Assembly (NCBI GenBank): GCA_016209085.1
Contig: JACQWV010000017.1
Span: 1 to 60,339, forward strand
Direction of reading: 5' to 3'
DNA from: Elusimicrobiota bacterium
Lineage (GTDB): Bacteria; Elusimicrobiota; Elusimicrobia; Elusimicrobiales; UBA9959
DNA: 60,339 bases
Part shown: piece by piece, positions 18,419 through 60,339 of the stretch
Numbering within the stretch: position 1 is the first letter of the stretch
Layout of the letters: the number at the start of each line of letters is the position of its first letter
Translations under genes and position numbers: made by a program
Notes under the pieces: model-generated
What the model saw: the letters and a program-made list of their open reading frames with translations, nothing else
The model's database searches: none
What the model was told of the DNA's origin: nothing

Positions 18419-20931
18419 ATGGTTAATTTGTCCAAGACAGGCAGAATTTTTGCGGTTTTTTTCCTGACTCTGGCATTTTTTGTTTCTCCGATTCTGTTTT
18501 TTACCGACTTAACCAGAAATCCGTATTATTTCCAGATAACTGTTTTTTATATTCCTATTTTAATCACGGGTCTTTTTTCAGACCCGCCATGCTGAGCGAA
18601 GGAATCCGGAACGGCCTGTTTCTTCTGATAAACTGCTTTCTGGCGTTCTGGATTTCTACGAGCATTTCTTTCAGGGGGAATTTTCTGGAAACTTCTCCTG
18701 GAAAATGGTTCATTCTTATTTTCGGGTGGGGGGGACTGTGGCTTTTATTCCCTCAGTTGAGGTCACTGGGCGCTCAATCCGCCAATCCCGTCATGGCGAA
18801 ATTCTGGGACCCGTACGGCGGGTTCCTGTGGATTGCAGGAATAATATACGTTTGCCGCTGCGTCAAATCTCTTAAACAGGAGGATTTCCTGCATCTTGCC
18901 ATGGCGTCCGGCGCCCTGGCGGCGTTATACGGAATTCTGCAATATTCTCACGTAGAACTGATATGGCCTAAAATTCTGAATCCTTACGGGAACAGGTCGG
19001 TCTCCACTTTCGGAAACCCGAATTTTATATCCTCCTACATAGTGATTCTCCTGCCCTACACGACGGCTTGCGTCATTTCTTCCGCAACCTTTTCGCAAAA
19101 ATTTTTTTACGGTTTTATTTTTCTCTCCTACGAGGCCATGCTGTTTGCAAGCCTTACCCGCTCCTCATGGCTGGGAGCTTTCTTTTCAATCCTTTTTTTG
19201 TTCTTTTTCAGGGAATACCGGGCGGGCATTATCCAAAACAGGCGTTTCCTGACTTTTTTCGCTTCCCTCGCGCTTTTGCTTGCCGTTTTGTGGCCGGCGC
19301 AAAACCTTAAACCCTTCAGTTTCGGCGTTTTTGACAGAGTTTCAGAAGGAAGATCCAACCTCCATGAACGAGCCTCTCTCTCTCTTGATGTGAAACAAAA
19401 CAAAGTGTATTCTTCTGTGCACCAGAGACTTTTGATATGGAGTTCAGCGTGGCAGATGGGTCTTGAAAATCCCATGTTCGGCAAGGGGTTGGGGGTTTTT
19501 GAGCTTTTTTATCCTTTTTACCAGGGGCCCCTTATCGCCGAATACGAAGCAATGAGGCCTCTCAGAACGCATGCAAACAACGCGCATAACGAAATTCTTG
19601 AGACCTGGGCGCAGACAGGGATACTGGGAACGGGCGTTTATGCATGGTTTTTTGCGGTTCTTTTGACCGCTTTTTACAGATATCGTGCCAATGCCGCTCC
19701 TGAAAAAAAGTTCTGGGCGGTTCCGTTCATCGCCGGAATCGCCGGCATGTTTGCGGACAATATTTTCAATGTCTCTCTTCATTTTGCGGTTCCGGGCTTC
19801 ATGTTCTGGTGGATGATCGGTTCTGCGTCCGTTTTGACGGCAAATAGCCTGTCGCCGGCCGTGAAGTTCTATCAGTGGACCCGGAAAAAACTCAATCTTG
19901 CGCTTGCCTGCGCTCTCGTTATTTTATCACTCGCGGGAATATACTACTGGCGGAACCAGTTCATGAGAGAAATATATTATTTCAGGGGATTTAAATTCAT
20001 GAGAAAAAACGAGTTTGCTTCGGCCGCCAGAGAGCTTCACAGAGCCTGGCAATATCATTCAAGGGAAGTCAACAACAATTATGAACTCGCGAACGCCTAC
20101 GTAAGAACCGGAGATTATACGCAGGCCCGCTGGGGATATATTGAAGCCCTCAAGTCAAACTGCGGCTACGACGAGATATTTTTTAATTTAGCCATAGTCA
20201 ATAAAAAACTTGAAGATTTTGAAAACGCTCTCAAGAATCTCAGGGTTTCTCTGGCGATAAATCCCCTGAATTCTTCGGCTTATGCCGCCATAACCGAGAT
20301 TTTTCTGAAGGATCCCGCAAAACATAGCCGGGAGGGATCGGAATTGCTGGAAAAAGCCTCAAAAATACTTCCTGACGACCCCAATATAACCGGCGCTCTC
20401 GCTTATTTCTATTCTCTGGACGGGAATCATTCGGCAGCCGCGAAGGTTTACGGCGAGGCCGTTAAAAAAGATCCTTCCAACCAGGCTCTTCTGGCGCATC
20501 TTCAGGCCGCTACGGCGAAAGCCGCCTCCGGAGACGGTTATCTGGCCTGGGTCAGGGATTTCAAACGGCTTGAGGAAGGCGTGAATAAAGGAGACTTTTC
20601 AAAACAGAACCTTAACCTTGCGGATAATCTGCTTAAAACTTCCCCCGACAATCCGAACGTTCTGTTTCTGAAATCAAAGATTCTTTACAGGGACGGCAAT
20701 CTGCCGGCTGCCAGGCAATGTTTGTTGAAATTGCTGGAAATACGGCCGGATGACAATACGGCCAGATACGGACTGGCAGTGATTCTTGAAAAAGAAGGAA
20801 ACTATAAAGAGGCGGAAAAGGAATTTAAAATTATTCTTGGCTCTGATCCTATCAACGCGGGAGCGGCTGAACATCTGAAAATACTCAAGAGCAAAACAAC
20901 AGTAACAGAAGGTGATAAGATGATAAGATGA
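18419..20931 (+). CDS. O-antigen ligase/O-oligosaccharyltransferase (Wzy_C) family membrane protein with C-terminal TPRs; frameshift near 18545
   Basis: STFGNPN, LTRSSWLG, RLLIW, NAHNEILETWAQTGILG, then TPRs. A 58-codon hydrophobic ORF 18419-18595 is out of frame with 18589-20931. Confidence 0.8.
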
Positions 20932-21187
20932 TAAGTAAGACAAAGGCAGGAAACAGCAAAAATTTAAAAAATTGCAGTTGAAGTAACGGCGGCATAATGT
21001 ACCAGCAGAGCGAAGCTCTGCGTAAGGGACATATTTGCGTAACAATGTTGTAATATTTAAGAAAATCTAAAAATGTTAAATAAAGTTTGAGAGTTTAGAG
21101 TTGGGAAATTTCTAAGAAATTACCTTAAGAACTTCTATAACTCTTGAACTCTAAAACTCTATAACTTTTTAATTTTGGAGCCATAAA

Positions 21188-22987
21188 ATGAAAATAATTT
21201 TTGCGAAAAAAAGTTCCCTGTTCATTTTTTTATGGTTTATACTGATGTTTTTTTACGGGGATATCATCAGCAGCCAGACCGGTTCGCGCGGGGGACCCCG
21301 CTTGAGCCGTTCCATGGAGCAGGCCATACAGCTTTATAATGAGGGGGAGGATAATGACGCCATGAACAGGTTCATGGATATCCTGGTAAAAGGCAGTCCT
21401 GCTGAAAAAGCCCTTGCAAACGAATATATCAATAAAATAACGCTCAGAATGAACACGGGTCTGATTCCGGTAAAAGACGCGGCTGATGCTGTTCCTATTC
21501 AGGCAGTCAAACAGGAAACAAGAAAATCCGGCGCCGATATCTATGAAGAGGCGGCAAAGCCGCAGTATGAGCCGGAAACCAGAGACAAAAAAGAACTGGC
21601 GGCGGAGAAAATTACGGCCGGCATTAAAGAAATCCGGAGAAATCTTCTTCTGGAACTGCAAAAATACAACGGGATAAAAATCTTCGTGCCGACCGGAGAG
21701 GATATGCCGAACGCGGTTTCCATTAATTCTGATTATATTTTCGCAATAGAGCCCGGAAAAGAGACCGTTTTCAGGACCGGAGCCGGAAAAATGCTTTCCG
21801 GCCTGAGCGGACTGATTTTCACTCTCGGGAATGCAAGCTGTCTGATAATTCCGGAAGGTTCCGTAGGAGGAGACATAAAAATAGCGGACATCAGGAGGGC
21901 CATAGCCCTCAGTTCGTATCTTACGGGCAGAGGCATCTCTAATGCAAGAATAGACGTTCATCTCATGGGTTCCGACTTGAGACTTCCCAAAGAATTGACG
22001 GTGGTCGGCGGAATCATACTGCTTTTTGACTATAAAAAGGAATTGAGGCTTACTCAAACCGAGGATACCCGCGCAAAAGGGCCTAAAGTGTCTCTGGGAG
22101 TATTTCCTACGGCGATATCCGTTTATAACAATGAAGGAGCAATCATTGAATTTTCGGTTTTTGAATCGCCGGATAAAGAGCCTCCGACCTGGAGATTCCA
22201 GATTTTTAATCTCCAGCCGGATAATACCCTGCTTCTCATTCAGGAAATCAACGGCAACGGGCATCAGTATCACCAGAGCTTCTGGAACGGAAGAAAAGAT
22301 TTTTTCGGGGCGGCTTATGAAAACGGGAAGTACCTGTTTTCCATTACCGCTTCGGATGTCAGAGGCAATGAATCTTCAATGAGAAAAATGCTTCTTCTGA
22401 AGTCCCAGTCCGGACAGGAAACAGAGACGTCTTCAAAAGAGAAGGCAGGCGCGCCGAAAAAGAAAGAAATCGGCAAGGTTCTTTCGGGGAAAACGGAAAA
22501 AGAAGCGTCCCCTGCGGAAAAAGGGACGAGAAAGTCCGTAAAACTTGCGCCGTCTAAATCCGGCGCGCTGAAAACAGCGAAAAAAACTCCGGTTTCCAAG
22601 CCGTCCGCTCCTGTTTCCTCAAAACCAGAGCCCACGCAGGATGAAACCGCTCCGGTTTCAGACGCGGACCAGACCGAGTTCAGCGGCCAGGTAATCTATA
22701 AAATATATTTCAGAGACGGTTCCAGCAGCATCACTCCGAACAGCGAGAGAAAACTTTCGCAAGTTGCCGACAATATGAATCTCTATCCCATGGCAAAGGT
22801 CAAGTTGACCGGATACGCGTACTCGGGAGAGCCGAATTCGGAAACGGTGGCGCAGAACAGGGCTAATTTCGTGGCCGGAGTTCTATCAAACAAGTACGGC
22901 ATAACAAAACAGAGGATTGAGATACATACCAGAATTTCGGAAACTCCGAAAAGCATAGTGGAAATTAAAATGCTGGGAAAAGAGTAA
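21188..22987 (+). CDS. Periplasmic protein with FlgD-Ig domain and C-terminal OmpA-like peptidoglycan-binding domain
   Basis: N-terminal TM/signal; WNGRKDFFG..GKYLF; Lys/Pro linker; IYF..LTGYA..AQNRANFVAGVL..GI...RI. Confidence 0.75.
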   Translation: MKIIFAKKSSLFIFLWFILMFFYGDIISSQTGSRGGPRLSRSMEQAIQLYNEGEDNDAMNRFMDILVKGSPAEKALANEYINKITLRMNTGLIPVKDAADAVPIQAVKQETRKSGADIYEEAAKPQYEPETRDKKELAAEKITAGIKEIRRNLLLELQKYNGIKIFVPTGEDMPNAVSINSDYIFAIEPGKETVFRTGAGKMLSGLSGLIFTLGNASCLIIPEGSVGGDIKIADIRRAIALSSYLTGRGISNARIDVHLMGSDLRLPKELTVVGGIILLFDYKKELRLTQTEDTRAKGPKVSLGVFPTAISVYNNEGAIIEFSVFESPDKEPPTWRFQIFNLQPDNTLLLIQEINGNGHQYHQSFWNGRKDFFGAAYENGKYLFSITASDVRGNESSMRKMLLLKSQSGQETETSSKEKAGAPKKKEIGKVLSGKTEKEASPAEKGTRKSVKLAPSKSGALKTAKKTPVSKPSAPVSSKPEPTQDETAPVSDADQTEFSGQVIYKIYFRDGSSSITPNSERKLSQVADNMNLYPMAKVKLTGYAYSGEPNSETVAQNRANFVAGVLSNKYGITKQRIEIHTRISETPKSIVEIKMLGKE

Positions 22988-23060
22988 ACGGCAGTAACCA
23001 GTGGCCAGTAACCAAGTAACCAGTAACGGCAACTGCAAACGGCAGTAACCGGTAACGAGT
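22985..23060. repeat. Degenerate CAGTAAC heptamer array (also 51155-51180, 57540-57600, 57726-57761)
   Basis: cagtaac cagtggc cagtaac caagtaac cagtaac. Confidence 0.8.
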
Positions 23061-24647: not shown

Positions 24648-24692
24648 TAAAGAGAGATTATAAGGTGACAAGATGATAAGTAGTTGAAAATC

Positions 24693-25331: not shown

Positions 25332-25354
25332 TTAGCGGAATTGCGCGAAGCGAT

Positions 25355-26161
25355 ATGACGAAAAACCTGACAAGCATTATAGGATGGGCGATTTTGGCCG
25401 CCGTTCTGGCTGTCCCCGCATTTTTATTTTATAATTGGTGGTCAAAAGGCAGGTCGGAGAGGATGATTGATTCTGCGGCCGGCCAGATGCCTGTTGGCAG
25501 CGTATTTTCAAAGAACGAACAGCAGACGACCGCCGCCCCACTGTACGGCGGCGGGCCCGCCGTAGCAACAGATAAATTCGCGTCAGCGGACACGGCACAG
25601 CCGGTTACGCAGAATCCCGGCAAACCCAGTGGTTTGCGACCGACTGAAATAAAACAGAAAATATCAGGCGCGGTTTCAACAACTGCTGCGACAGGTTATT
25701 TGCAAACACAGTCAACGGCTGCGCCGTCCGATACGAGTCACAAGTCACAAGTCGCAGGTCACAAGTCAGAAGCAGACTCTGGCGGACAAGCTGCGTATTC
25801 TGCCGAAACATCTTCGGCTGCAAAATCCGGGCAGGACAGCCAAAATCTTGGTTCATATTTTTTTCCCAAAACCGAGAGGGACCCTACTCTTTCGCCCCAT
25901 GATTATGCGAAATTGAAAGAGGAAGAAGAAAGAAAGATAGAGCTGGAACGCCAAAGAAGACTCATGCAGATGAGGAAGAAAAAACAGGAGAGTCCTGTAA
26001 GCAGGTTGAGTCTTCAGGGAATCGTGGGCAGCGATGTGATTATCAACGGGGAAATGTACCGGTTAGGCGGCGCTGTGGGAGGCGCCAAAATAATTAAGAT
26101 AGGCGCAAACTATGTGGTTCTTGATTACAAGGGAAAATCTTTTAAATTGTTTTTGCAATAA
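25355..26161 (+). CDS. PilP/GspC-position bitopic protein
   Basis: N-terminal TM, low-complexity linker, RDP motif, LSLQGIV..VIINGE..G..VGGAKIIKIG. Confidence 0.6.
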   Translation: MTKNLTSIIGWAILAAVLAVPAFLFYNWWSKGRSERMIDSAAGQMPVGSVFSKNEQQTTAAPLYGGGPAVATDKFASADTAQPVTQNPGKPSGLRPTEIKQKISGAVSTTAATGYLQTQSTAAPSDTSHKSQVAGHKSEADSGGQAAYSAETSSAAKSGQDSQNLGSYFFPKTERDPTLSPHDYAKLKEEEERKIELERQRRLMQMRKKKQESPVSRLSLQGIVGSDVIINGEMYRLGGAVGGAKIIKIGANYVVLDYKGKSFKLFLQ

Positions 26162-26169
26162 ACTATAAT

Positions 26170-26220
26170 AGGCGAATAGGCGAAAAGGTGAAAAGGCGAA
26201 TAGGCGAAAAGGCGAGTAGG
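26170..26220. repeat. AGGCGAAW octamer array merging into the pilQ RBS
   Basis: aggcgaat aggcgaaa aggtgaaa aggcgaat aggcgaaa aggcgagt. Confidence 0.85.
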
Positions 26221-26227
26221 AGGCAAT

Positions 26228-27940: not shown

Positions 27941-28007
27941 ATAAAGCAGGTTAAGGTTCAGATTGAGGTTAAGAACAGCAGATTAAGGTTGAGAACTACA
28001 AACAAAA

Positions 28008-28064
28008 TGTAGCAGGCGAATTACTATTTGCCATTTTTTGCGGCATAGTAATGCCGCCGCTACA
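28008..28064. repeat. GTAG-type REP doublet (REPIN-like)
   Basis: TGTAGCA-GGCGAAT-TACT-ATTTGCC ... GCGGCAT-AGTA-ATGCCGC-CGCTACA; loops are complementary. Confidence 0.75.
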
Positions 28065-28099
28065 AACTCTTAACCTTAATCTCAATCTGCTGTGTATTT

Positions 28100-29880: not shown

Positions 29881-29990
29881 TATTATATAGAGTTATTGAG
29901 AAATTAAGTGATTAGGTTTTTACTTCTTAACTTAATCACTGCTTGCTTAATCGTAAATCCTCACTGAACACCGTTATGTCAGGCAAAAAT

Positions 29991-30051
29991 GTAGGGGCTC
30001 AATTCATTGAGCCCGAAAAATATGCGGGTCGGATGAATCCGCCCCTGTTCC
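29991..30051. repeat. REP doublet
   Basis: GTAG-GGGCTCAAT-TC-ATTGAGCCC ... GGGTCGGAT-GA-ATCCGCCCC-TGTTCC. Confidence 0.75.
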
Positions 30052-30082
30052 ACGCTTAATCACTCTGTTGACTGGAGTTGTT

Positions 30083-31309: not shown

Positions 31310-31330
31310 ATAAAATAGATACAGGATACA

Positions 31331-31426
31331 AGTGATTAGTGGCGAGCAGTTAACTACAATAGCGAGTGGCAAGTTGTTAGTGGTGAGTAAAAAAACTAAT
31401 CACTATTCACTAATCACTAACCACTG
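31331..31426. repeat. Inverted AGTGNNN heptamer arrays (also 45957-46032, 17711-17738)
   Basis: agtgatt agtggcg ... cactatt cactaat cactaac cact. Confidence 0.8.
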
Positions 31427-31956: not shown

Positions 31957-32409
31957 ATGAATAAAAAACGCAAAGGAGTCTTCCTGGTTGAATTGGTGGT
32001 GGCCGTGCTCGTTGCGGCCTCAACTTCCATGGCTATATTTTCAGTGATTTTATCCTCTTCTGTTTCGCAGAAAAGGGCTGAGAAAAAACAGAGAGCAGCC
32101 ATGGTCTTTAAAAGGGCGCAGGAGAGTCTTAAAAGTTACGTGACTGTTGAAACAGGCGGTACTTTTTTCACAACGACTCCCGGACAGGGGTGGCGGCTGC
32201 CAGGGGATTCCCTATCATGGGGTTTGACAGCCGGCGTTCACGACATAACTTCATGGATAAGCAGCGATGTGGTCTTATGCCCCCAAGGAGGGAGTCCCTC
32301 GTGCAGATTTACTTATACTGTTACAAACGAAGGCTCCTGCAGTCCGTTTGGAATCGCTGATAATTTAGCCTGCAAAAGAGTGCGTTTTGATTTGAGATAT
32401 TCAGATTAG
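31957..32409 (+). CDS. Minor pilin (PilV-like)
   Basis: MNKKRKG|VFLVELVVAVLV. Confidence 0.75.
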   Translation: MNKKRKGVFLVELVVAVLVAASTSMAIFSVILSSSVSQKRAEKKQRAAMVFKRAQESLKSYVTVETGGTFFTTTPGQGWRLPGDSLSWGLTAGVHDITSWISSDVVLCPQGGSPSCRFTYTVTNEGSCSPFGIADNLACKRVRFDLRYSD

Positions 32410-32451
32410 ATAGAGGACAGGGGATAGCGGTCAGGGGACAGCGAAGGAATT

Positions 32452-37250: not shown

Positions 37251-37340
37251 AACCAGTCACAAGTTGCAAGTTTCAAGTCACAAGTTCTTTCTCTTCAGTT
37301 TCCGTTACTTGTGACATGCGACCTGTGACTTGTGACCTGC
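37251..37340. repeat. Inverted TCACAAG heptamer arrays (also 33463-33527, 16960-16991, 25736-25770, 44661-44693)
   Basis: 24-bp AAGTTGCAAGTTTCAAGTCACAAG identical at 16960, 33473 and 37261. Confidence 0.85.
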
Positions 37341-38934: not shown

Positions 38935-39059
38935 ATGGAAAAGCAGATTGAGATTAAGGTTAAGATTAAGAAAAAATCAATTTGGCAAAAACTTTTCTAT
39001 TACTTTATTGTGTAACGCTATAATATAATATTACAATATTTATCAATGGAATTTTTAAA

Positions 39060-40130
39060 ATGAAATCAAAACTTTTTGTGGTCCTGCCTGCGGCTTTATC
39101 TGTCGCCATACTTATATGGCTCATATATCCCAGAGCGCACGCGTTACTGGACGTTCTTAAAAACGCGGACCTGTTTTTTCTCGGATTTTGCATGGTATTT
39201 GCGGTTTCCAGTTATTCCTTCATGGGCCTTACCCTGTGGGAGGTTCTTAAACTTCTGCATTACAGACTTCCCTTCTGGGAAACCGGCGGCATAGCTCTCG
39301 TATCAACGGCCGCTAATTATTTTTTTTCCTCAGGCGGGATAAGCGGATTCGCTCTCAGGGCGCACCTTTTGAGCAAACGGCGCATACCTTACGGAATATG
39401 CGTCACCACATCCGTGGTAATCAGCGTTTTCATTTACCTGGTCCTCTCCATCCTGATTCTTCAGGGAATGATTCTCCAGCTGTTGAAAACCCATGAATTC
39501 GGTTTGAGATTTTTTGAGAGTCTGCTGGGAATTATCTTTCTTCTCGGATTCGCTTTTTTTCTTGTTTTGCTGTTCTTCCGCCATGAGATGCGTTCAAAAT
39601 GGAGCAAGAAATTATATCACGGAGTAAACCATATCATTTATTTCTTTTCAAAAAAGGAAATACCCAGGGAAACCTTCAACCAGTTTGAACACCAGCTGAA
39701 CAGGGGCATTCACACGATACACTCAAGAAAATACGAGCTTCCAAAGGTCATAGGCTACGTATGCATGGACTGGATATCCACGCTTTTAATCCTGTATTTT
39801 GCGTTCATGGCGGTCGGAATCAACATGGGAACCAGCAAACTTATCATAGGTTTTTCTTTCGGCATGGCCATGACCGTGATTCCGGTCCTTCCCGGAGGGC
39901 TCGGAGCCATGGAAGCTGCCATGACGGCCGTTTTTTTCCAGATGGGAATAAGCTGGGAAAAAGCCCTTGCCGCAAGCCTCATCTACAGATTTTTTTATTA
40001 CCTTCTGCCGGCTTTTTTTGCGATTTTTATATACTGGGGATTAAAAATATCCGAGCCTGAATATTTCTGCAAAGCTCAGTATTACAAAACGCAAGGCAGA
40101 GAAGGGGTGAAGGATAAGTGGGAAGGATAA
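39060..40130 (+). CDS. Lysylphosphatidylglycerol-synthase TM / flippase-like membrane protein
   Basis: Multiple TMs; IPVLPGGLGAMEA; LIYRFFYYLLP. Confidence 0.85.
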   Translation: MKSKLFVVLPAALSVAILIWLIYPRAHALLDVLKNADLFFLGFCMVFAVSSYSFMGLTLWEVLKLLHYRLPFWETGGIALVSTAANYFFSSGGISGFALRAHLLSKRRIPYGICVTTSVVISVFIYLVLSILILQGMILQLLKTHEFGLRFFESLLGIIFLLGFAFFLVLLFFRHEMRSKWSKKLYHGVNHIIYFFSKKEIPRETFNQFEHQLNRGIHTIHSRKYELPKVIGYVCMDWISTLLILYFAFMAVGINMGTSKLIIGFSFGMAMTVIPVLPGGLGAMEAAMTAVFFQMGISWEKALAASLIYRFFYYLLPAFFAIFIYWGLKISEPEYFCKAQYYKTQGREGVKDKWEG

Positions 40131-40175
40131 AGGATAAGCGGAAAGGAAAAGAGAAATGAGCAAACAGGGAACAAT

Positions 40176-44164: not shown

Positions 44165-44716
44165 CTATTTTGTGGCGGATATTTTTGTTTCCTGATTTTG
44201 TATCTCAATCTGCGTAAGGTCGGGGTTGGCCATGAATCCCCTTCCTTTTGTCACGGTTTCTCCCTTGTAAATGGTTATTTCTTCGTCGGTCCAGATTTTA
44301 TTTTCAGCTGACTTAAACAGGATTGTCTTTGTGCCGAGCCGCATATTTTCGGTTCTGGACACGATTGACACGTTTCCGCTCAGTTCAGCGTCTTTGGTTG
44401 AAAGATTCAAAAATCCGGAATCGGAGCTCATTTCGGAAGTTATTGCCCCTGCCGCGTAAAGTTTCAGTTTAGGATGCGCAAGCCTGATTTTGCCGTCTTT
44501 TTCGTTTAAGTTCGCTCCTGCGGAAACAAGGCTCCATTGGTCCTTATTGTCTTTTGATTTAAACAATTCAAGGTCTTTTATTAAATTCACCGGTTCCTGC
44601 GACTCCTTGTTCCGTGAGCTCTGCGAACTGCCGGAACATGAAACCAATAAAAGAAGAAAACAAGTTACAAGACACAAGTTACAAGTCACAAGTGAAAATT
44701 TAGAGAAGCCCTTCAT
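44165..44716 (-). CDS. lptC: LPS export periplasmic protein LptC
   Basis: WSLVS..A, LSGNVSI, IWTDEEITI..GRGF; lipobox-like LVSC. Confidence 0.85.
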   Translation of the reverse strand: MKGFSKFSLVTCNLCLVTCFLLLLVSCSGSSQSSRNKESQEPVNLIKDLELFKSKDNKDQWSLVSAGANLNEKDGKIRLAHPKLKLYAAGAITSEMSSDSGFLNLSTKDAELSGNVSIVSRTENMRLGTKTILFKSAENKIWTDEEITIYKGETVTKGRGFMANPDLTQIEIQNQETKISATK

Positions 44717-45952: not shown

Positions 45953-45998
45953 AAAATCAGTGATTAGTGGTCAGTGTATAGTGGTTAGTTCTTTTCCA

Positions 45999-46853
45999 TC
46001 ACTTGTCACTCGCCACTAACCACTTGCCACTGTCCTTTGCCAGCGTATCTATATGATTTAGCATATTGACTGCGTCGCATACAAGACTGAGTTTCAGGGA
46101 ATTGGGGCCGTCTGACAATGCTTTTGAGGGATCCGGATGGGTTTCAAAGAAAATGCCGGCTATTTTCAGGATGCAGGCGGCTTTGGCAAGAGGAAGGGCA
46201 AATTTTACGTCTCCTCCGGTAATATTGCCGAGTCCCGCCGGTCTTTGAACAGAGTGGGTGCAGTCAAAAATTACGGGATATCCGGTCTCTTTCATTATTT
46301 CTATGGAGCGCATGTCAACGACAAGATTGTTGTACCCGAAACACGTGCCTCTTTCAGTCAGGAGTATTGACCGGTTGCCTCTGGATTCTATCTTCTTCAC
46401 CGCATTTTGAATTTCCCATGGCGACATGAACTGGCCCTTTTTTATGTTTACTGTTTTGCCCGTATCCGCGGCTGCTGCCAGAAGGTCAGTCTGTCTTGAG
46501 AGAAAAGCAGGTATCTGGATGATATCCGCGCATTTGGAAACCATCGGCGCCTGCCATGTTTCATGCACGTCAATAAGAACGGGGATTGCGAGTTTTCTTT
46601 TAATCTGCGCAGCGATGTCCAGGCTTTTTTTCATCCCTATTCCCCTGAAGGATTTGTGGGAAGTCCTGTTGGCTTTGTCAAAAGAAGCCTTCAGCGCAAA
46701 GGGGGTTTTAAGCCTTGAAAAAACGGTCTTAAGTTTTGAGGCAATGGCCGTAAATCCCTTTTCGGATTCAATCACGCACGGGCCAGCTATGTAGACGAGT
46801 CTGGAGTCGTTGGAAAACGTGATGCCGCCGGCTTTTACTTTTTTTGGGGTCAT
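45999..46853 (-). CDS. kdsA: KDO8P synthase
   Basis: [39 protein letters not shown]. Confidence 0.97.
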
Positions 46854-48451: not shown

Positions 48452-48464
48452 AATAAACAGCAAT

Positions 48465-48553
48465 GAATAGTGATTAAGTAAATAATTATTAAGTGATTAA
48501 GTAACAGCGATTTAAGGAACTTAATCGCTAAATCACTTAATCTCTTAATCACT
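48465..48553. repeat. Inverted TTAAGTGA-type octamer arrays (also 29890-29952, 42475-42512, 53955-54080)
   Basis: ttaagtgattaagt ... acttaatcgctaaatcacttaatctcttaatcact. Confidence 0.75.
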
Positions 48554-49298
48554 GTTGTATATATTTTATTAAATATTGCTCCGCTTTCTTAATATCCTGC
48601 CTGACGTCTATTGCCGGGCCGAGTCTTGGGACTTTTACAGCCCCGATGCAGAGTCCCGCTTCAAGAGCGCGCAGCTGTTCAAGTCTTTCAAGAGATTCAA
48701 GAACGCTTTCAGGCAAAGAAACGAATTTCTTAAGAGCGTCGTACCTGTAAACGTAAAATCCGCAGTGTTTATACCAGGGAATTTTCATGGAAACAGCCGA
48801 TAAGGGATGATGAAAGGGAATCGGGATTCTGGAGAAATAAACGGCCCTGGAGTTTTTTCCCAGAGCCACTTTTACCGTATTGGGATTAATGAGGTCTTTT
48901 TTATCATAGATAGGGCTGCACGCTGTAGTTATGTGAAATTGCGGATTTTTTTTCAGCAGTTCAAACGCTTTGATGAGCGTACCGGGCTCCATAAAAGGTT
49001 CGTCAGCCTGGTAGTTGATTATGAATTCTCTTTTGTTTCTGAGCGCGGTTTCAAAAACCCTGTCCGTGCCTGATTTGCATTTTGGGCTTGTCAGGCAGGT
49101 CTCGGCGCCTATTGTTTTTGCAAAATGCAGGACTTTTTCATGTTCGGTCGCTATTATTACCCGCCCCAGTCCGGCGCGGAGAGCGGATTCGTAACACCAT
49201 TGCAGAACGGGTTTCCCGTTCAATTTATGAAGGACTTTTCCCGGGAACCTTTCCGAAGCGTACCTGGCAGGGATTACGATTAAACAGTTGCTTTGCAT
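48549..49298 (-). CDS. kdsB: CMP-Kdo synthetase
   Basis: IPARYASERFPGK, SGTDR, YFSR, LEQLRALE. Confidence 0.95.
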   Translation of the reverse strand: MQSNCLIVIPARYASERFPGKVLHKLNGKPVLQWCYESALRAGLGRVIIATEHEKVLHFAKTIGAETCLTSPKCKSGTDRVFETALRNKREFIINYQADEPFMEPGTLIKAFELLKKNPQFHITTACSPIYDKKDLINPNTVKVALGKNSRAVYFSRIPIPFHHPLSAVSMKIPWYKHCGFYVYRYDALKKFVSLPESVLESLERLEQLRALEAGLCIGAVKVPRLGPAIDVRQDIKKAEQYLIKYIQQ

Positions 49299-50311: not shown

Positions 50312-51148
50312 TTATTGAAAACTTCGTTTTGCCAGTTTTGCCGTTACAGAGCCGATGAATATTTCGGCTTTGATCATCACCGGGATTTTTGCCTCGTCGT
50401 CAGTCAGCCAGACGTACAACTTGGCATTTTTCTTGGAGATAAAAATCCCTTCCTCAAGAATCCGCGGTTCTATCAGAACGCATCTGACTTTGCCTGCCGG
50501 TGTTTTTATCTTTTCCCTTTTGTGGACCTTGACGATAAGAGTCCAGTTCTTTTTCGTGTTTACCGGCATGGAAAACTCGGAGCCTTCGTCAAGGTTCTTT
50601 GTCCTTACTGCATAGAGGCTTGTAAGCACGTCGTTGACGGGTCCGGGGATAAGACCGGAGCTTTCGGTTATCTCGCCGTCTTTGTTTTTTCTTTGCGCCG
50701 TGAAAGAAGAAGAGGATATGTCATATAAAACCCATTCCGCATAAATATACTTTCCTTCTTTTATGTTTTTATAATACCCGTATGAATACAGGGTTTCCGA
50801 GTCCATCCATGCCTCGTTTAAATCCCTGACTTGATAGAAATTGTCTATAAACGAAGAAGAACGGGCCTCTGAAATAAAATGATAAGCGGGTCTTGTGCCT
50901 GCCAAAACAATCCTGTCGGAATAGAGATAAGACTGGCCGACATTTATGAAACCCCAGTATATTTCATAATCAAGCTTTTCTTTGTGCCACGGTTTTGTGG
51001 AAAAATTAATTTCCCCAGTAATTTCCGGAAAAGAGGATAAAGGACAGGAAAACGCAGAATTTAAATTTTCGGCATAAACGGAAGAAGAAATTAAAAATGA
51101 GAAAATAAAACTGATTACCGATTTCTGATTTATGATTTCTAATTTCAT
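50312..51148 (-). CDS. DUF3108-like exported protein
   Basis: EKLDYEIYWG, FYQVRD, EKIKTPAG, VWLTDD..IPV. Confidence 0.75.
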   Translation of the reverse strand: MKLEIINQKSVISFIFSFLISSSVYAENLNSAFSCPLSSFPEITGEINFSTKPWHKEKLDYEIYWGFINVGQSYLYSDRIVLAGTRPAYHFISEARSSSFIDNFYQVRDLNEAWMDSETLYSYGYYKNIKEGKYIYAEWVLYDISSSSFTAQRKNKDGEITESSGLIPGPVNDVLTSLYAVRTKNLDEGSEFSMPVNTKKNWTLIVKVHKREKIKTPAGKVRCVLIEPRILEEGIFISKKNAKLYVWLTDDEAKIPVMIKAEIFIGSVTAKLAKRSFQ

Positions 51149-51173
51149 TTAATTTCTAATTACTGGTTACTGA

Positions 51174-51752
51174 TTACTGCTGTTTTATTATCCATCTTGC
51201 CGCCTGCAGCAGCGTGTCTGCAACGTGAGCCGCAAGATTCTTTGCGGCTTTAATTTCATGAGAGCCGTGCCCGGTTAACAAGAGTATTGATTTTAAGTTG
51301 AATTTCCGCGCCAGTATCATATCAGTCGTCTTATCTCCTACCAGATAAGAACTCTTTATGTCAAGATTATGGTTTTTAAGCGCCTCTTTGACCAGGCCCG
51401 GTTCGGGCTTTCTGCACCGGCATCCGTCCCGCGGTCCGTGCGGACACATATAAATACCGTCTATTTTCACGCCTTTTTTTTCCAGATAATCCAGTATTTT
51501 AAGATTAACCAGTATTGCTTTTTTCAACGTCATCAATTTTCTTGCCACGGCCGATTGATTGGTAAGTATTATGAGCTGGAAACCGGATTCCTGCAGTTTT
51601 ATGAGAGCGTCCGGCGCGGTTTTGTAGATTCTGATGCCGCTTGTTTTTGTAAGATAACGGCCTTTCCTGTCAAGGTTGATTGTGCCGTCCCTGTCTAAAA
51701 AAACAGCCGGTTTTTTTGTTTTATTATCCGATTTCCTCGAATAAACAAGCAT
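51174..51752 (-). CDS. gmhB: D,D-heptose-1,7-bisphosphate phosphatase
   Basis: FLDRDGTIN, TNQS, CPH..C.CRKP, GDK..D. Confidence 0.93.
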   Translation of the reverse strand: MLVYSRKSDNKTKKPAVFLDRDGTINLDRKGRYLTKTSGIRIYKTAPDALIKLQESGFQLIILTNQSAVARKLMTLKKAILVNLKILDYLEKKGVKIDGIYMCPHGPRDGCRCRKPEPGLVKEALKNHNLDIKSSYLVGDKTTDMILARKFNLKSILLLTGHGSHEIKAAKNLAAHVADTLLQAARWIIKQQ

Positions 51753-51784: not shown

Positions 51785-53026
51785 TTATTTCTTGTTGTTC
51801 GCTATTTGCTCTGTTATTGCATTCATCAGAATTCTGTAGCCATCTAACAGGAATTGAATCTTCGCTGAAAATATGTAAACTTCGGTTTTAAAAATCTCGC
51901 GCCAATTTTCCGGGAATCTGACAAAATCTTTGTGCGTGGTTATCAGCGGCAGATAATGTCTTGCGGTTTCTATCGCCGTCATTTCTTCTACGGTGAAGAA
52001 GTGATGGTCAGGATAACGCCAGGCCTGCCTGAGGCTGATTTTTAGGGATTTGAGGTTTTCTTCAAAAGACCCTGGGTCTCCTATGCCGGAAATGACTGCG
52101 GCTTCCTTTTTGAATTCCGCCGGGTGCATGCCTTTCATGGTAAACGCGTCTATGAAGCATTCAGGCGAATATACGGTTTCAAGAATCGGCGCGTTTTGGT
52201 CGTCGGCATAGCCTCCGACACCTGTGGGTCGGGTGGCATAGCGCCCGACACTTGATGAGGTCGTCGGCATAGCCTCCGACACCTGTGGCCGCAGTGCGGC
52301 TGTTCCGCCAGAGGCTCGTTGTTCCGCCGCAGTGCGGCTGTTCCGGTTGAATTTCACGATTTCCTGTTTAAGGGTATCCAGATTCTTTTGGCTGGTTCTT
52401 TCTACATGCGTCAATATTATGATGTCGGCCGTTTTCAGCCTGTATTTCGGCTCCCTCAGGTTTCCCATGGGGAGGAGTTTTTCATTTTCAAACGGCATGC
52501 CGGCGTTTATGAGAATTATTTTTAGGTCTTTTTTTATGGAAAAATTCTGAAATCCGTCGTCAAGCAGAAGCACGTCGCTTTTAAAGAGATTCAGGGCAAG
52601 TTTTCCTGTTTTGATTCTGTCCGGTCCGACTATTACCGGTATGGAATGCGGATTGAGGAGATTGTACAGCATCATGGCTTCATCGCCGGTGTCCCTGATG
52701 CTGAACGGGCCCGGCCCGCACAGCGCGACGGGAGACGCGGAACTTCGGGTTCTTTTATATCCCCTGATGAGGACCGCAGGGTTATGGCCGGATTTTTTCA
52801 GTTCTATGGCTGTCAGAATTGCCATAGATGTTTTTCCTGTTCCGCCGGTTGAGATATTTCCGAAACAGATTACCGGAACCCCAGAAGAGGCTGGTTTTAA
52901 AAATTCATTGTCATAGAGAAAATATCTGCATTTGAGAGCGAGCAGATACAAAAAAGAGAGAAACTGAAGAAGAAGTCTTCCGTATTTGCATTCCTTAAGT
53001 TCGTTTCTGAGTTTTTCAAGAGACAT
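51785..53026 (-). CDS. lpxK: Tetraacyldisaccharide 4'-kinase with 49-aa repeat-derived insertion
   Basis: GNISTGGTGKT, RGYK, GDEA, LDDGFQ, LLPMGNLREP, YPDHH, TTHKD. Confidence 0.95.
   Translation of the reverse strand: MSLEKLRNELKECKYGRLLLQFLSFLYLLALKCRYFLYDNEFLKPASSGVPVICFGNISTGGTGKTSMAILTAIELKKSGHNPAVLIRGYKRTRSSASPVALCGPGPFSIRDTGDEAMMLYNLLNPHSIPVIVGPDRIKTGKLALNLFKSDVLLLDDGFQNFSIKKDLKIILINAGMPFENEKLLPMGNLREPKYRLKTADIIILTHVERTSQKNLDTLKQEIVKFNRNSRTAAEQRASGGTAALRPQVSEAMPTTSSSVGRYATRPTGVGGYADDQNAPILETVYSPECFIDAFTMKGMHPAEFKKEAAVISGIGDPGSFEENLKSLKISLRQAWRYPDHHFFTVEEMTAIETARHYLPLITTHKDFVRFPENWREIFKTEVYIFSAKIQFLLDGYRILMNAITEQIANNKK
52198..52347. repeat. Modular palindromic element inserted in frame in lpxK
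   Basis: 30-bp unit x2 (52198-52227, 52259-52288) and 20-bp unit x2 (52288-52307, 52326-52345). Confidence 0.88.
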
Positions 53027-53945: not shown

Positions 53946-54084
53946 AATTAAAAAGTAATTAAGTTATTGAGAAATTAAGAGATTAAGTTTGGAAAGCAAT
54001 TAAATTTTCAACACATTACTTATTTTCCATGTTCTTCTTTTACTTAATTACTCAATCACTTAACCTCTTAATCGCTAATTTTAT

Positions 54085-54351
54085 TTACTGTATTCTGTAT
54101 TTAGGGTCATTGTACATCTTGAACTGCCTGTATATTTTGAGTTTTGCCAGACCTGCGCCGTATTTTTCCAGCAATTCATCTATTTCCGCTTCCAGGTCGC
54201 TCTTTTGCATTTGCAATATCTTTATTTTCCGGAGAGATTCTTCAACGTGGGTTTTATCCACGTCTTTGCGCCGCGTTTGTTCGGCCATGTGATATATTTT
54301 CAGCGTCAATATGCTGATTTTATCCGTGAGACTTCCGAGCGTTTCCGCCAT
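54085..54351 (-). CDS. DUF4254-like protein, C-terminal half
   Basis: [32 protein letters not shown]; own GGAGG RBS. Confidence 0.75.
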
Positions 54352-54547
54352 GATTTAACGCCTCCGATACTTTTTCGTCAATCTTTTCTATCAAGTCGTT
54401 GCGAAGCTGGTTTAATCTGTCTATCTGCCTTTTGGCGCGGGCAACGGTCAGATTATCCGGCAACCGCGCTTTGTCTTCCTCATGCCACAACAGGACATTG
54501 GTCATGGCGAGTTCGCTTATCAACCTGCCTATTTCTTTTTTTGACAT
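54320..54547 (-). CDS. DUF4254-like protein, N-terminal half
   Basis: [28 protein letters not shown]. Confidence 0.75.
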
Positions 54548-54585
54548 ATTATTTCACTCCTCCAATCCTCTAATCCTCCAGCCCT

Positions 54586-55401
54586 CTAAACCAATCTTGA
54601 CATGCCTCTTGTCAAATGAAGATGCATGTCCAGATTGTTTTCATCTCCCCTTATGAATAATCTGTCAATGGGGCGTTTTTCCGGCTTCCAGGGCCATGGG
54701 GTCTTTCCCTGTTTAAAACTGAAATCAAAAACATAGCCTGCATTAAAAACCATGTTCCGTATGAGAGGCGTATATGCGCCGGCGCCGTAAGGATACGCAA
54801 AAGCCGCGATTTCACAGCCTAATTTCGCTTCAAGCTGTTTTTTGGACTCTATCAATTCCCATTTGACCTGTTCAGGGGGTATTCTGGTTAAATCCGGATG
54901 ATTCATGGTATGCGAGCCGAATTCCATGAATTTGCTTTCTTTCATTTCAAAAATCTGCTCCCATGTGAGCATGTTTATCCACGGCTCTGTTTCAGGATTA
55001 TGCCATAAGTTTATCTTGCCTATTGTGTTATAAGCAAGGAATATGTTGCCTTTTGCGTTCAAATCCTTTAATATTTTATAAGCATGTTCATAATTGTTCT
55101 GGTAGCCGTCGTCAAAGGTTACAATCGCTGATTTTGAGGGCAAATCAGATTCGCTTTTAGCGGCTTTTAAAAGCTCCGAAAAGACCAAGGTCTGGTAACC
55201 CTGCCGCAGAAGAAAAGTCATTTGTTTTCGGAAATTTTCAGGAGAGACCCACAGACTCTTGAGTTTTGAATTTTTAGGCGGATGGCCGATTTTATGATAT
55301 ACCAGAACCGGCAGGCCTGCCGTCTTCTGTTTCCACCATGTCCACCTCGCGCTTAAGCCCAGACCCAGAAGCCCGGAAAAAATTATTATCAACGATTCCA
55401 T
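54586..55401 (-). CDS. Polysaccharide deacetylase (CE4)
   Basis: PVLVYH, VTFDDGY, GSHTMNH, FAYPYG. Confidence 0.92.
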   Translation of the reverse strand: MESLIIIFSGLLGLGLSARWTWWKQKTAGLPVLVYHKIGHPPKNSKLKSLWVSPENFRKQMTFLLRQGYQTLVFSELLKAAKSESDLPSKSAIVTFDDGYQNNYEHAYKILKDLNAKGNIFLAYNTIGKINLWHNPETEPWINMLTWEQIFEMKESKFMEFGSHTMNHPDLTRIPPEQVKWELIESKKQLEAKLGCEIAAFAYPYGAGAYTPLIRNMVFNAGYVFDFSFKQGKTPWPWKPEKRPIDRLFIRGDENNLDMHLHLTRGMSRLV

Positions 55402-55434
55402 AGATATATATTATAGAACTTCTTTAAATTTTAT

Positions 55435-56949: not shown

Positions 56950-57006
56950 AGGTCGCAACATAAATGCAATATCAAAATATTATAATATTATTGGAGGTCG
57001 GGTAAC

Positions 57007-57534
57007 ATGAGATATAAGTATATTTCAACGCTGCTTACCGCAGCCGCTTTTTTGTTTTGCGTTAAAGCCTATGGATTTTTGCTGTCAAAATTTTACAGGA
57101 TAGCCCTGCTGGAGCAGGCATCTGCCGCCATAGGGGACTTAAAGACAGGGGGGGGTTACAGTCTCTTCGGAACTACCGGAAATTTTAATTTAAGTTCTGT
57201 TTCAAGCTCAAGATTCGTCATAAACCGCGGGGTTTTGACGTCCTGGCGGCCGCCTGAGTTGAATCTGAACAAAGCGCACGTATATCCTAATCCCTGCAAT
57301 CTCAAATATGGCTGCAATGCAGTGACTTTTACAAGATTGACTTTCAAGGCAAACATAAAAATATATACGGTTTCGGGGGAACTTGTTAAAATCATACGCA
57401 GGGAAGACAGTACGGACAGCCAGGCATGGGATTTAAAAAACGAATACGGCAGGCAGTTATCAAGCGGGCTCTACATCTATTTTATTGAAGGCGAGGGACA
57501 CACCAAAGAGGGAAAATTAGTGATAGTAAGATAA
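57007..57534 (+). CDS. Small exported protein with T9SS-type-A-like CTD
   Basis: GGAGG RBS; signal peptide; VYPNP..IKIYTVSGELV..WDLKNEYG..SGLYIY..GKLVIVR. Confidence 0.8.
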   Translation: MRYKYISTLLTAAAFLFCVKAYGFLLSKFYRIALLEQASAAIGDLKTGGGYSLFGTTGNFNLSSVSSSRFVINRGVLTSWRPPELNLNKAHVYPNPCNLKYGCNAVTFTRLTFKANIKIYTVSGELVKIIRREDSTDSQAWDLKNEYGRQLSSGLYIYFIEGEGHTKEGKLVIVR

Positions 57535-57636
57535 ATACAGCAGTAACCAGTAACCGGTGGCATAGCAAGAAGCAAAATATCCAGTAACCAGTAACTGATT
57601 GGTGGGATTGGTTATAGGAACTCGCGGAGGCAATTT

Positions 57637-60339
57637 ATGGAAGCAATTAAAAAAACTTTCTCAAAAAAGATTTACAAATTTTTATACAGTTTTTCTGCCA
57701 AATATTTGAAATTTGCTGTTTTCTGTTCACTGGTTACCGGTTACTGGTCACTGGTTACTGTCGTTCAGGCAGGCGACATAACCGTCGGAGCGGTTCCGGG
57801 TTCAATAAATTACCAGGGCAGGATAGAAAAGGATAATGCTCCCTACACGGGAATTCTCCATTTGAAATTCAGGTTTTACGACGCGTTGACCGCCGGTAAT
57901 CTGGAATGGGAGAGCCCTGAGTTGGTCGTGAACGCTGTGCAGGGAATATTCAGCGCCGCCATAACCCCGCCCTGGAGCGTTTTTGCGAGTCAGGAGGTCA
58001 GATACCTTGAAATACAGGTTGAAAGCGACGTGCTTTCCCCTAGGGAAAACATGAACAGCGTGGTTTATTCTCTGATAGCCAAACGGCTTGAAGACGGTTC
58101 AGACCTTTCAGTTTCCACGCTCACCGCCAGTTATAATGTTTTTCTCGCAACTGCCGCGGGGAACGTCGGGATAGGAACCAATGCTCCGAATAAAAGGCTT
58201 GTGGTAAACGGAGGCATAAGGCTGCTTGCAGACGGCATATATTTTGCGGACAACAGTTACATGTCTGCTGCAGGGGTCGGTTCTGCCGGCGCGGTCTCAG
58301 CCAATATAAACGCAGTTATGGTTTCGGACGCGGACGATAACGGAACAGGGGATATTATTTTCCAGAGCGCGAGCACGGAAAAGATGAGGATGATTAATAA
58401 CGGAAATATGGGCATAGGCACGACAAATCCTCTGGGAAAACTGGATGTGAACGGTTCTCTTTATGTCAGCAATTCAGGCATATACGACAGGGACGACGGG
58501 GAAATAAACATAAAAGAAGATTTAATCGTTGAAGGGGGAAAAATCACCGGCATGAATTCGGAATCAGTTTCAATAGGAGAAACGGACGATGTCATTTATT
58601 TTTTCTCAGGCGGTTCCGAGAGAATGAGAATCCATTCCAACGGGAATATGGGCGTGGGCATAGCGGCTCCCTCGCAGAACCTGCATGTGAGCGGGAATGC
58701 TTACGCCACTTCCGGAATCCGCGGGGGAGACGTGTCAATCGGCTCGTATTCCGGCGCCGCTTCAAACGAACTGCGCTCCCAAACCGGAAATCTCCTGATC
58801 CAGCAGACGGGTTTTAACGTGGGCATTGCTACTGACACTCCCAAAGAGAAACTCCATGTCGGCGGCACCATAAGGGCGGAAAAGGGAATAACCGCAAGCA
58901 CTGCTGTTTTTTCAGGCGCCGTAAATATCCAGGGCAATTTTACGGCCAATTCAGGCATGGGGAACAGCGTATATCTCTCTTCCACGGTGATATACGGCAC
59001 GCTTCAGGTCACGGGTTCTGTGGGGAGCGACCAGGGTTATCCTGCGTATCTCAGTGCGAATAATACTTTTTCCGGTCAGAACGTTTTTTCCAATCTTACA
59101 ACCTTTTCCAACAACGCTCTTGTATCAGGCCGCATCGGAGTCGGAACAGTGGACTTTAATTTCCCTTCTGCGAGATATCTGCAGGTGGGCGACGACGTGC
59201 CGGCATACGCCAACGACGACGCTCTGGCTTATCTGGTTTCCGGCGCCAACGCCAATCCAAAACTTTATTTCTACAGGAGTTCAAACGAGATAGCAAGGCT
59301 GGAAACCCAGGGAACCGGCGCTGACAAAAAATTCGGCATTGTGATGGACAATAAAACAAAACTTCTTATTGATTCAAATTATTACGGGATATATAACACG
59401 GCGGTATGGATTTCAACGGATGTCGGGACCACCCCGGGAATATACGTCAGCCCCACCATGGGCAATGTGGGAATGGGGACCACCATACTTGACCCGAACT
59501 GGAAGCTGACTGTTGAAGGAAACATCAGGATTTCCACCACTTCCTCGCCCGGCAAAAGCTACGGACTGATTTTTGCTGACGGAACCCTCATGACCAGCGC
59601 CGGAGTCGGTTCTACGAACATGGTTTCAAACAACGGCGACGCTCTTGTGCAGTCTGATCTGGATTCAAACGGCGCCGGAGACGTCATTCTGAGGGCAGGC
59701 AGTCTTGACGGAATCATCGTAAAAAGCGGCGGCAGCATCGGCATAGGGACTCCGAGTCCTGTTTCAAAACTCAATGTCAGGGGGGGAGACCTTGTTCTCG
59801 GAAATCCTTACAACCCCTATGCGTCAAACGGAGTTGAGGACCTTATAGTGGCGGGAAGTCTTATTATTGACGGAGGCGTGGTTCAGAGGTCAGCCTCGCC
59901 TGTAGAATTGTCCGCTCTTACGGTTTCCGGAAACGTGTATCTTTCCACAAGCCCTGCGGCAAGAACCGGAATAGGCAACAACAGTCCTTCCTTTCGCCTG
60001 GACGTGACCGACGACATCAATGCCGGCGGTTCCATACGAACCGCTGGAACCGTGCGCATTTCCAATACAGGGGTTATAGGCAGCGGCGGCGGCCAAGCTA
60101 CATGGGACGGGCTTGTAATCAACGTGGATCGCGGGGGCACGGGCGCGGCTACTTTCACGGCCGGCGGGATTTTATACGGAAACGGGACAGGAGCCATACA
60201 AGCTTTTGGCGTGATGACGGACGGTCAGCTGCTTATAGGCGACGGTTCCGGGGCTCCGACCCTGGCTACGCTTACCCCTACGGCCAATCAGGTAAACGTG
60301 ACAAACGGACCCGGAACCATAACTCTTTCTCTGCCTCAG
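57637..60339 (+). CDS. Tail-fibre-like adhesin, 3'-truncated (at least 901 aa; absent from ORF track because no stop is in the window)
   Basis: GGAGG at 57626; signal peptide; VPGSINYQGR..FRFYDA..G..W N-domain; repeated GNVGIGT..P...L.V.G; frame runs to the window end (..ITLSLPQ). Confidence 0.85.
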   Translation, partial: MEAIKKTFSKKIYKFLYSFSAKYLKFAVFCSLVTGYWSLVTVVQAGDITVGAVPGSINYQGRIEKDNAPYTGILHLKFRFYDALTAGNLEWESPELVVNAVQGIFSAAITPPWSVFASQEVRYLEIQVESDVLSPRENMNSVVYSLIAKRLEDGSDLSVSTLTASYNVFLATAAGNVGIGTNAPNKRLVVNGGIRLLADGIYFADNSYMSAAGVGSAGAVSANINAVMVSDADDNGTGDIIFQSASTEKMRMINNGNMGIGTTNPLGKLDVNGSLYVSNSGIYDRDDGEINIKEDLIVEGGKITGMNSESVSIGETDDVIYFFSGGSERMRIHSNGNMGVGIAAPSQNLHVSGNAYATSGIRGGDVSIGSYSGAASNELRSQTGNLLIQQTGFNVGIATDTPKEKLHVGGTIRAEKGITASTAVFSGAVNIQGNFTANSGMGNSVYLSSTVIYGTLQVTGSVGSDQGYPAYLSANNTFSGQNVFSNLTTFSNNALVSGRIGVGTVDFNFPSARYLQVGDDVPAYANDDALAYLVSGANANPKLYFYRSSNEIARLETQGTGADKKFGIVMDNKTKLLIDSNYYGIYNTAVWISTDVGTTPGIYVSPTMGNVGMGTTILDPNWKLTVEGNIRISTTSSPGKSYGLIFADGTLMTSAGVGSTNMVSNNGDALVQSDLDSNGAGDVILRAGSLDGIIVKSGGSIGIGTPSPVSKLNVRGGDLVLGNPYNPYASNGVEDLIVAGSLIIDGGVVQRSASPVELSALTVSGNVYLSTSPAARTGIGNNSPSFRLDVTDDINAGGSIRTAGTVRISNTGVIGSGGGQATWDGLVINVDRGGTGAATFTAGGILYGNGTGAIQAFGVMTDGQLLIGDGSGAPTLATLTPTANQVNVTNGPGTITLSLPQ

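Follow-up and report, generated by a model that had tools for sequence, protein, structure and literature searches.

MITEs, REPINs and the Rickettsia palindromic elements are small, non-coding, multi-copy sequences that form hairpins and are tolerated within reading frames; the palindromes of REPs and REPINs carry a conserved GTAG/GGAG lead and are tied to a RAYT gene. Intergenic heptamer repeats include the STRR of cyanobacteria. Others have been described from Xanthomonas (GGGAATC) and Nostoc (GGGGA(C/T)T) (PMC4692102) and from the Beggiatoaceae (TAACTGA; PMC4679880), in arrays at gene junctions that overlap stop codons and gene ends, with about 70 inverted pairs in Xanthomonas (PMC4692102). 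In the main text of these two papers there is one unit per organism, treated as a G-quadruplex or a regulatory site, and it is linked neither to a cassette nor to shared loops or signal peptides; the term 'four helix' does not occur in the main text of the Xanthomonas paper. Moreover, the intervening sequence (IVS) of the Coxiella 23S rRNA occupies the helix 45 site and contains an S23p ORF preceded by heptamer repeats, and its heptamer-bearing stem is cut by RNase III in vitro (PMC4990558). The corresponding four-helix-bundle family is homologous to Avd of diversity-generating retroelements (PMC10053308). As far as the main texts go, these pieces have been published separately (PMC4990558, PMC4692102, PMC4679880). 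A literature search covering main texts and few subscription papers found no paper that describes the armed cassette or its empty copies, or that joins these pieces; in a Flavobacterium paper the four-helix-bundle gene appears only as a table entry.

Here we analysed a window of 60,339 nt, meaning the whole stretch of DNA under study, which is contig C42 of a 2.35 Mb, 98%-complete genome. Its arrays share with the heptamer repeats above their position at gene junctions, their overlap with stops and gene ends, and their inverted pairs. They are real, non-random and explained in kind: they act like a MITE family without a transposase in its master and are kin to the ORF-bearing 23S intervening sequences.

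Repeat arrays in the window and across the genome

A type IV pilus cluster and an LPS/Kdo cluster lie in the array-bearing range, as do uvrA and nadB. No tRNA was found in the window by a tRNA scan, and no Rfam match at gathering score. An earlier note on this DNA had described many of its junctions as filled by degenerate 6-9-mer tandem arrays, often in inverted pairs whose purine-rich arm comes first. A tandem scan returned 22 arrays in the window, where 20 block shuffles gave 0-2 apiece, and 127 in 600 kb of the genome, compared with 1-3 after shuffling. Each unit named in the note lies where it was placed or within a few bases; 6-8-mers prevail nearly throughout, and period 9 accounts for only 12 of 516 arrays. 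Below, L denotes the purine-rich arm and R the complementary, pyrimidine-rich arm.

16960-16997 and 17708-17736, plus strand: two in-frame L arms within a 4668-aa ORF, beyond the range of the earlier note
20909..20938, plus strand: single L arm, AGGTGATA family, covering the stop codon of ORF 18589-20931
21084..21176, plus strand: arm pair, AGAGTTT family, directly 5' of an OmpA-like gene (z -2.85)
22979..23057, plus strand: single L arm, CAGTAAC family, spanning the OmpA-like stop to the PilM-like start
24652..24684, plus strand: single L arm, AGGTGATA family
25733..25772, plus strand: L arm, AGTCACA family, in frame in ORF 25355-26161, a hydrophilic stretch
26167..26220, plus strand: single L arm, AGGCGAAT family, 5' of pilQ/gspD
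27944..28092, plus strand: arm pair, 6-mer AGGTTA family, pilQ-pilB junction (z -6.9); its loop holds another small hairpin
29890..30065, plus strand: arm pair, AGTGATTA family, pilB-pilC junction; its right arm is interrupted at 29954-30052 by a 13-copy REP-like element
31330..31425, plus strand: arm pair, AGTGGTT family, in the largest shared-loop subfamily
32409..32443, plus strand: single L arm (AGRGGNC), immediately 3' of a stop codon
33464..33526, plus strand: arm pair, AGTCACA family
37252..37339, minus strand: arm pair, AGTCACA family, nadB-uvrA junction (z -5.6)
38943..38973, minus strand: single arm, 6-mer family, adjoining the nadB start on its 5' side
40110..40151, plus strand: single L arm (AAGGATA), covering a stop codon
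42482..42517, minus strand: single L arm, 3' of the lptB stop
44660..44693, minus strand: R arm, encoding the hydrophobic LptC N-terminus in frame
45957..46031, minus strand: arm pair, AGTGGTT family, its L arm forming the last codons and stop of kdsA (z -5.2)
48454..48556, minus strand: arm pair, AGTGATTA family, kdsB-pyrG junction (z -5.1)
51110..51185, minus strand: L-type arms, from the gmhB stop into the first codons of ORF 50312-51148
53953..54078, minus strand: arm pair, AGTGATTA family, 5' of a heptosyltransferase gene (z -4.2)
54555..54589, minus strand: single L arm, AGAGGAT family, 3' of a deacetylase stop
57539..57760, plus strand: CAGTAAC L arms (57539-57595), RBS, ATG at 57637 and R arm (57704-57760)

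Inverted pairing thus holds for about ten sites in the window, while about eleven are single arms (20909, 22979, 24652, 26167, 32409, 38945, 40110, 42482, 44660, 51110-51185 and 54555). The arms at 16960, 17711, 25733, 44660, 46002 and 57704 are inside coding sequence rather than at junctions. The reported 23-bp match is exact: 38943-38965 is the reverse complement of 28068-28090 in the right arm of the pilQ-pilB pair, and this 23-mer occurs twice in the genome. The long imperfect hairpins that had been suggested are borne out as predicted folds, with nine paired window sites at z = -2.4 to -6.9 against shuffles.

Several other features of the window were recorded. The REP-like palindromic element at 29954-30052, with 13 genomic copies of its first 37 nt, also interrupts a four-helix-bundle gene on contig C83. 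GC-rich multi-copy repeats at 52190-52350, 43560-43610 and 36470-36540 lie inside lpxK, an lptA-like gene and uvrA, with high contig depth, and rfaE contains a repeat of 24-nt period (49585-49660). Two short conserved minus-strand genes, present also in relatives, occupy the heptosyltransferase-deacetylase interval (54090-54550). Next after the 4668-aa ORF (3870-17876) comes a short ORF whose C-terminus gives a weak T9SS-like match, and short arrays lie 3' of a RAYT-like gene (860-915).

The genome was then scanned with an arm vocabulary trained on its own arrays, at a segment score of at least 45. This yielded 733 segments, compared with 16 in one shuffled genome, which merge into 508 elements: 178 L-R pairs, 5 R-L pairs, 183 L arms alone, 139 R arms alone and 3 mixed. 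The precedence of the purine-rich arm is accordingly upheld genome-wide, with a vocabulary trained on these same arrays, and single arms make up about two thirds of all elements. There are over ten unit families, and both arms share a family in 157 of the 178 pairs (shuffled mean 50). Across 145 co-directional pairs the predicted fold has a median z of -4.6, and 92% lie below -2. The genome-wide repeat scan proposed in the note therefore places both arrays and inverted pairing far above shuffles.

Since gene calls were simple longest ORFs, counts by context are approximate. Elements were found at 355 of 1452 co-directional junctions (about a quarter), 30 of 182 convergent and 29 of 187 divergent ones, corresponding to 3.15, 1.42 and 0.90 elements per kb. 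At co-directional junctions the sense strand carries the L type in 165 of 216 single arms, and the L arm starts at a median of -1 nt relative to the upstream stop codon. Separately, an arm lies no more than 60 nt away from 12 of 35 tRNA/tmRNA genes; often it is an R arm ending 2-6 nt upstream of the tRNA.

In relatives, the spacer at the kdsB-pyrG, pilQ-pilB, pilB-pilC, nadB-uvrA and other junctions is either short and clean or occupied by an arm pair built from another unit; a given genome uses few units repeatedly at many junctions. Among 80 metagenome loci arrays are rare at the window's junctions, at 0-6 per 11-64 distinct spacers. The best relative found has about 77-79% protein identity, and a search for a very close one with a clean pre-insertion site gave none.

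These data bear on whether the elements are host-selected hairpins for mRNA processing or translation coupling, such as RNase III sites, with the spread of their sequence secondary. The stems are strong in prediction, elements are enriched within operons, the genome has an RNase III gene, and the Coxiella stem is cut by this enzyme in vitro (PMC4990558, main text). However, the same junctions work without arms in many relatives, the units are not conserved, and single arms predominate among the elements. Sense-strand G-U pairs show no significant excess over A-C pairs (403 vs 367, p=0.21), and cleavage could be a consequence of the hairpins rather than their function. We consider selected processing sites very improbable as an explanation of the arrays.

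Association with a four-helix-bundle gene family

The earlier note had offered small cassettes, with four-helix-bundle (TIGR02436) or GxxExxY genes as examples, as the source of the arrays. The second of these fails, with no match to PF13366 in the genome. For the first, a PF05635 profile search returned nine matches in the genome, none of them in the window, and all five that were checked against NCBIfam pass TIGR02436. All nine lie between arms, L on the 5' and R on the 3' side, the downstream arm being lost at a fusion in contig C81; by eye, arms are also present around 26 of 27 cassettes of relatives. In a word count over 75 cassettes the flanks share a median of 14 inverted words, compared with 6 for cross pairs, and under strict counting about half of the 75 exceed the cross-pair 95th percentile (14).

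The gene family and the arrays also tend to occur together. Four-helix-bundle genes are present in 16 of 41 genomes, and PF05635 also occurs in Bacteroides thetaiotaomicron. Near kdsB and pilB, we counted 20 arrays in 83 kb from 11 genomes with at least two such genes and none in 34 kb from four genomes with one gene, while 20 genomes without the gene had 2 in 124 kb; kin among these genomes are not independent. There are exceptions in both directions: G015 has eight genes and few arrays, and G008 has one weak gene and several arrays. Between different junctions, proteins at least 60% identical share more arm words than expected (0.088 vs 0.031, p=0.0002; 28 non-independent pairs), whilst a Mantel test of protein against arm similarity over the whole set gave no correlation (rho 0.03, p=0.26). 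A quick tree of the proteins, with 67 rows and no partial genes, leaves many forks open, and one host junction can carry different gene clades with different units.

A comparison of orthologous junctions had been suggested as a check, and its outcome was mixed. By eye, 15 of the 27 relatives' cassettes map to 12 distinct junctions in this genome, which here hold one cassette (of another unit), two empty pairs, five single arms and, in four cases, no arm (background 24%). Thus junctions with a cassette in relatives do hold empty arms here. At the window's own junctions no cassette was found in 10 syntenic stretches, 60 kdsB and pilB loci and 84 further loci (990 kb in total), in a search verified with a positive control.

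The layouts L-gene-L-R or L-R-gene-R were seen in several cassettes. Recombination between direct copies of one arm, in gene-L-R and L-R-gene layouts, would yield an empty pair. Empty elements outnumber full ones by about 50:1 in the genome, and none of the gene-bearing forms found in it belongs to the abundant AGGTGATA, 6-mer or TAAGAAT families. A search for other cargo of 150-1300 nt between matching arms revealed none beyond the four-helix-bundle gene, with a filter that also missed several known cassettes. A single DUF559 gene was considered as cargo and rejected, as it is flanked by its own palindromes and not by arms.

Taken together, it is very probable that the elements derive from this cassette. 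As with MITEs, REPINs and Rickettsia palindromic elements, the arms look like deletion derivatives of a gene-bearing form; unlike those, they are periodic, have no fixed termini, and their gene-bearing form encodes no known transposase.

Copying and spread of the empty pairs

Non-repetitive loops are common to several pairs, in families of 9, 5, 8 and 6 copies. Like the many dispersed near-identical short copies of a MITE, 68 of the 178 pairs have a sister elsewhere of at least 55 nt and at least 92% identity (maximum 137 nt at 100%), a few of these matches owing to a gene-end duplication or an inserted REP-like element. The copies have ragged ends, at times reaching the downstream RBS and ATG, and not the fixed terminal inverted repeats shared by a MITE and its transposase element; the inverted match of the flanks is at the null level. 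The loops at C24 and C94 match 5' codons of the four-helix-bundle gene on C114, and this loop type forms a five-member family; these pairs therefore appear to be internal-deletion derivatives that later multiplied. The retained first codons agree with the scars or landing pads of the earlier note, although self-spreading units fit better than scars left site by site. Under a strict nesting test, outer and inner arms from two families were seen in three elements, all mirrored. Across 13 subfamilies, orientation to host transcription is kept in 64 members and reversed in 11 (p ~1e-5; members not independent), a bias whose source may be selection for a co-copied RBS instead of the mechanism.

The shared loops weigh heavily against independent, slippage-born simple repeats whose arms mirror each other by chance or through quasi-palindrome repair. 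Slippage does occur: four DNA runs of one study cover the arrays, and at 26185 one of them has two extra units (16 nt) in the AGGCGAAT-family arm, the one unit-number variant visible, so slippage appears ongoing. The runs are possibly the source of the assembly and therefore not independent of it. The arrays are, moreover, degenerate. Slippage alone does not account for the polarity of 178 against 5, the limited unit repertoire, the co-occurrence with a gene family, or the shared non-repetitive loops and gene remnants; because loops are shared, this origin is largely refuted already and we regard it as barely credible.

We lean, by a little, towards the arrays being non-autonomous deletion derivatives of the PF05635/TIGR02436 cassette, with hairpins copied and pasted into transcribed junctions. 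The link to the gene family, the multiplication of whole hairpins, their ragged ends, and the biases in orientation and junction are direct observations; the copying of the sense strand is a closer call, which we put slightly short of even. Internal deletion of a gene-bearing cassette would generate the empty forms. New copies would be templated from the sense strand, either as RNA or as a displaced DNA strand, and would be joined through short homologies to gene ends, existing arms and hairpin tips; such joining would leave ragged ends and could bring an RBS or signal peptide along. Slippage would afterwards alter unit number, and selection would likely retain L arms, with their hydrophilic codons, at stops and in loops, and R arms, whose codons are hydrophobic, in signal peptides.

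The cassette protein may assist in this. Three of five tested proteins match the Avd profile NF033474 at E ~1e-11, below its cut-off, and the four-helix-bundle protein matches Xcc0516 (PDB 2GSC) at E 3.6e-26. The likeness to Avd, with which it shares a homologous fold family, suggests a nucleic-acid chaperone for templated insertion; the catalytic enzyme would then be a host or a visiting one. In a diversity-generating retroelement a reverse transcriptase, accompanied by template and variable repeats, stands beside avd, whereas PF00078 has no match in this 98%-complete genome, nor in the arm-bearing G001, G005, G008, G020 and G026. This, together with the lack of a clear sense-strand wobble excess, counts against a simple retro-route. 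The sense strand folds better in 80 pairs and worse in 64 (p=0.04), a weak signal. In relatives, Avd-like genes beside reverse transcriptases (L146, L147, L149, L150, L153) form their own clade without tandem arms and are probable diversity-generating retroelements.

The main rival to sense-strand-templated copying accepts the same cassette origin and has the elements spread by plain DNA gene conversion and template switching between arm-bearing sites, with the protein a passenger and orientation the product of selection. Ragged ends fit such events, and direct repeats of at least 6 nt flank 22% of 177 elements against a null of 17%, no clear excess, with imprecise ends and no clean pre-insertion allele. 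Shared segments that extend into an RBS, ATG or signal peptide, the direct-repeat layouts around genes, the missing reverse transcriptase and the null G-U result point the same way. Plain recombination leaves unexplained how about 500 sites, clean in relatives, were first reached, the per-base excess at short co-directional junctions, and the insert in helix 45 of the 23S rRNA described below. We judge this rival unlikely, though it deserves serious weight.

Alternatively, single-stranded DNA hairpins might be mobilised by the genome's REP-associated (Y1/HUH) transposases, as for REPINs. The hairpin form and the lack of a detected target duplication would fit. PF01797 has nine matches in the genome, one at 38-280 of the window, and some in all arm-rich relatives; the motif ACAGCAG is enriched at outer ends (49/678 vs 7/1523). 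However, PF01797 is also present in relatives without arrays in the examined stretches (G003, G019, G022, G023). The RAYT on C24 has its own palindromic repeats, which the periodic arms do not resemble; the end motif is ACAGCAG, at both ends of only 14 of the 178 pairs, and not GTAG/GGAG. REP-like elements insert into arms and into a four-helix-bundle gene. On this evidence transposase-driven mobilisation is improbable. The window gene at 38-877 is REP-associated tyrosine transposase-like, with NF047646 below cut-off and a PF01797 match.

Arms within proteins and in 23S rRNA

Among long ORFs, 40 R arms are N-terminal, following the ATG, and read mostly as hydrophobic runs, and 26 L arms lie mid-protein, mostly hydrophilic; signal peptides were called by hydropathy and appearance. 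In the ORF from 57637, the R arm at 57704-57760 encodes the hydrophobic core of a predicted signal peptide. LptC, whose N-terminus is arm-encoded here, has ordinary leaders in relatives and a different arm pair in G013. A 119-nt leader is 95% identical in two genes without protein similarity past about residue 50. In ten of the relatives' cassettes the gene reads in frame via the R arm into a long downstream frame. Recruitment of arms into proteins fits a filter that would be set by the genetic code and not by design, and with about 40 proteins here having arm-encoded hydrophobic leaders, selfish repeats are suggested to rewrite N-termini.

In-frame fusions of the four-helix-bundle gene to a long downstream frame were noted in L083, L138, L139, L141, L143, L144, L137, L072 and L086, and in this genome's own L006. 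In the relatives' fusions a hydrophobic, signal-like stretch is read from the right arm; seven of these proteins group in a single clade.

One element stands in the genome's own 23S gene (C132:4930-5024). This 95-nt arm pair, of the same AGTGGTT family as the window pairs at 31330 and 45957, is in place of a hairpin of about 22 nt found in 13 relatives, which, by its flanks and position relative to the E. coli sequence, we take to be helix 45. Its predicted fold has z -6.0, and its loop has a sister at C81. Derivation of the ACAGCAG end motif from the helix-45 stem was considered and is unsupported.

The cassettes thus resemble the 23S intervening sequences with an S23p/PF05635 ORF of Coxiella and Leptospira, in which complementary termini flank a four-helix-bundle ORF preceded by heptamer repeats of variable number (PMC4990558, main text); helix 45 is occupied in both, here by a member without an ORF. 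A long stem of complementary termini is predicted for the nine window pairs and the helix-45 copy. The ORF is absent from all of these and lies between arms at the nine loci elsewhere. 23S IVSs sit in helix 9 or 45, and RNase III removes them without religation. By contrast, there are about 500 copies here, mostly empty and nearly all in mRNA junctions, coding regions and spacers, the window copies being at mRNA junctions.

A broader generalisation, which we offer as speculative and somewhat unlikely, is a transposase-free class of mobile element in which an Avd-like pentamer guides copies of its own or emptied hairpin transcripts into gene ends and hairpin tips. If so, the 23S IVSs would represent those few copies to have entered rRNA, the heptamer-repeat excess of bacteria would be the debris of the class, and the shuffling of RBSs and signal peptides among unrelated genes would be a by-product. 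This would link the origin and mobility of 23S IVSs, the function of the four-helix-bundle family, and the intergenic heptamer excess. In this one genome complete cassettes, their deletion derivatives, amplified subfamilies, a copy in helix 45 and arms recruited into proteins coexist, and therefore mobility, strand dependence and RNase III cleavage are directly testable.

Lastly, in the 23S gene (C132:3823-8110, L157) the regions near 5790-6415 and beyond 7090 contain other long inserts that resemble group I introns with ORFs, and the rRNA spacer on C132 carries three additional arm pairs.
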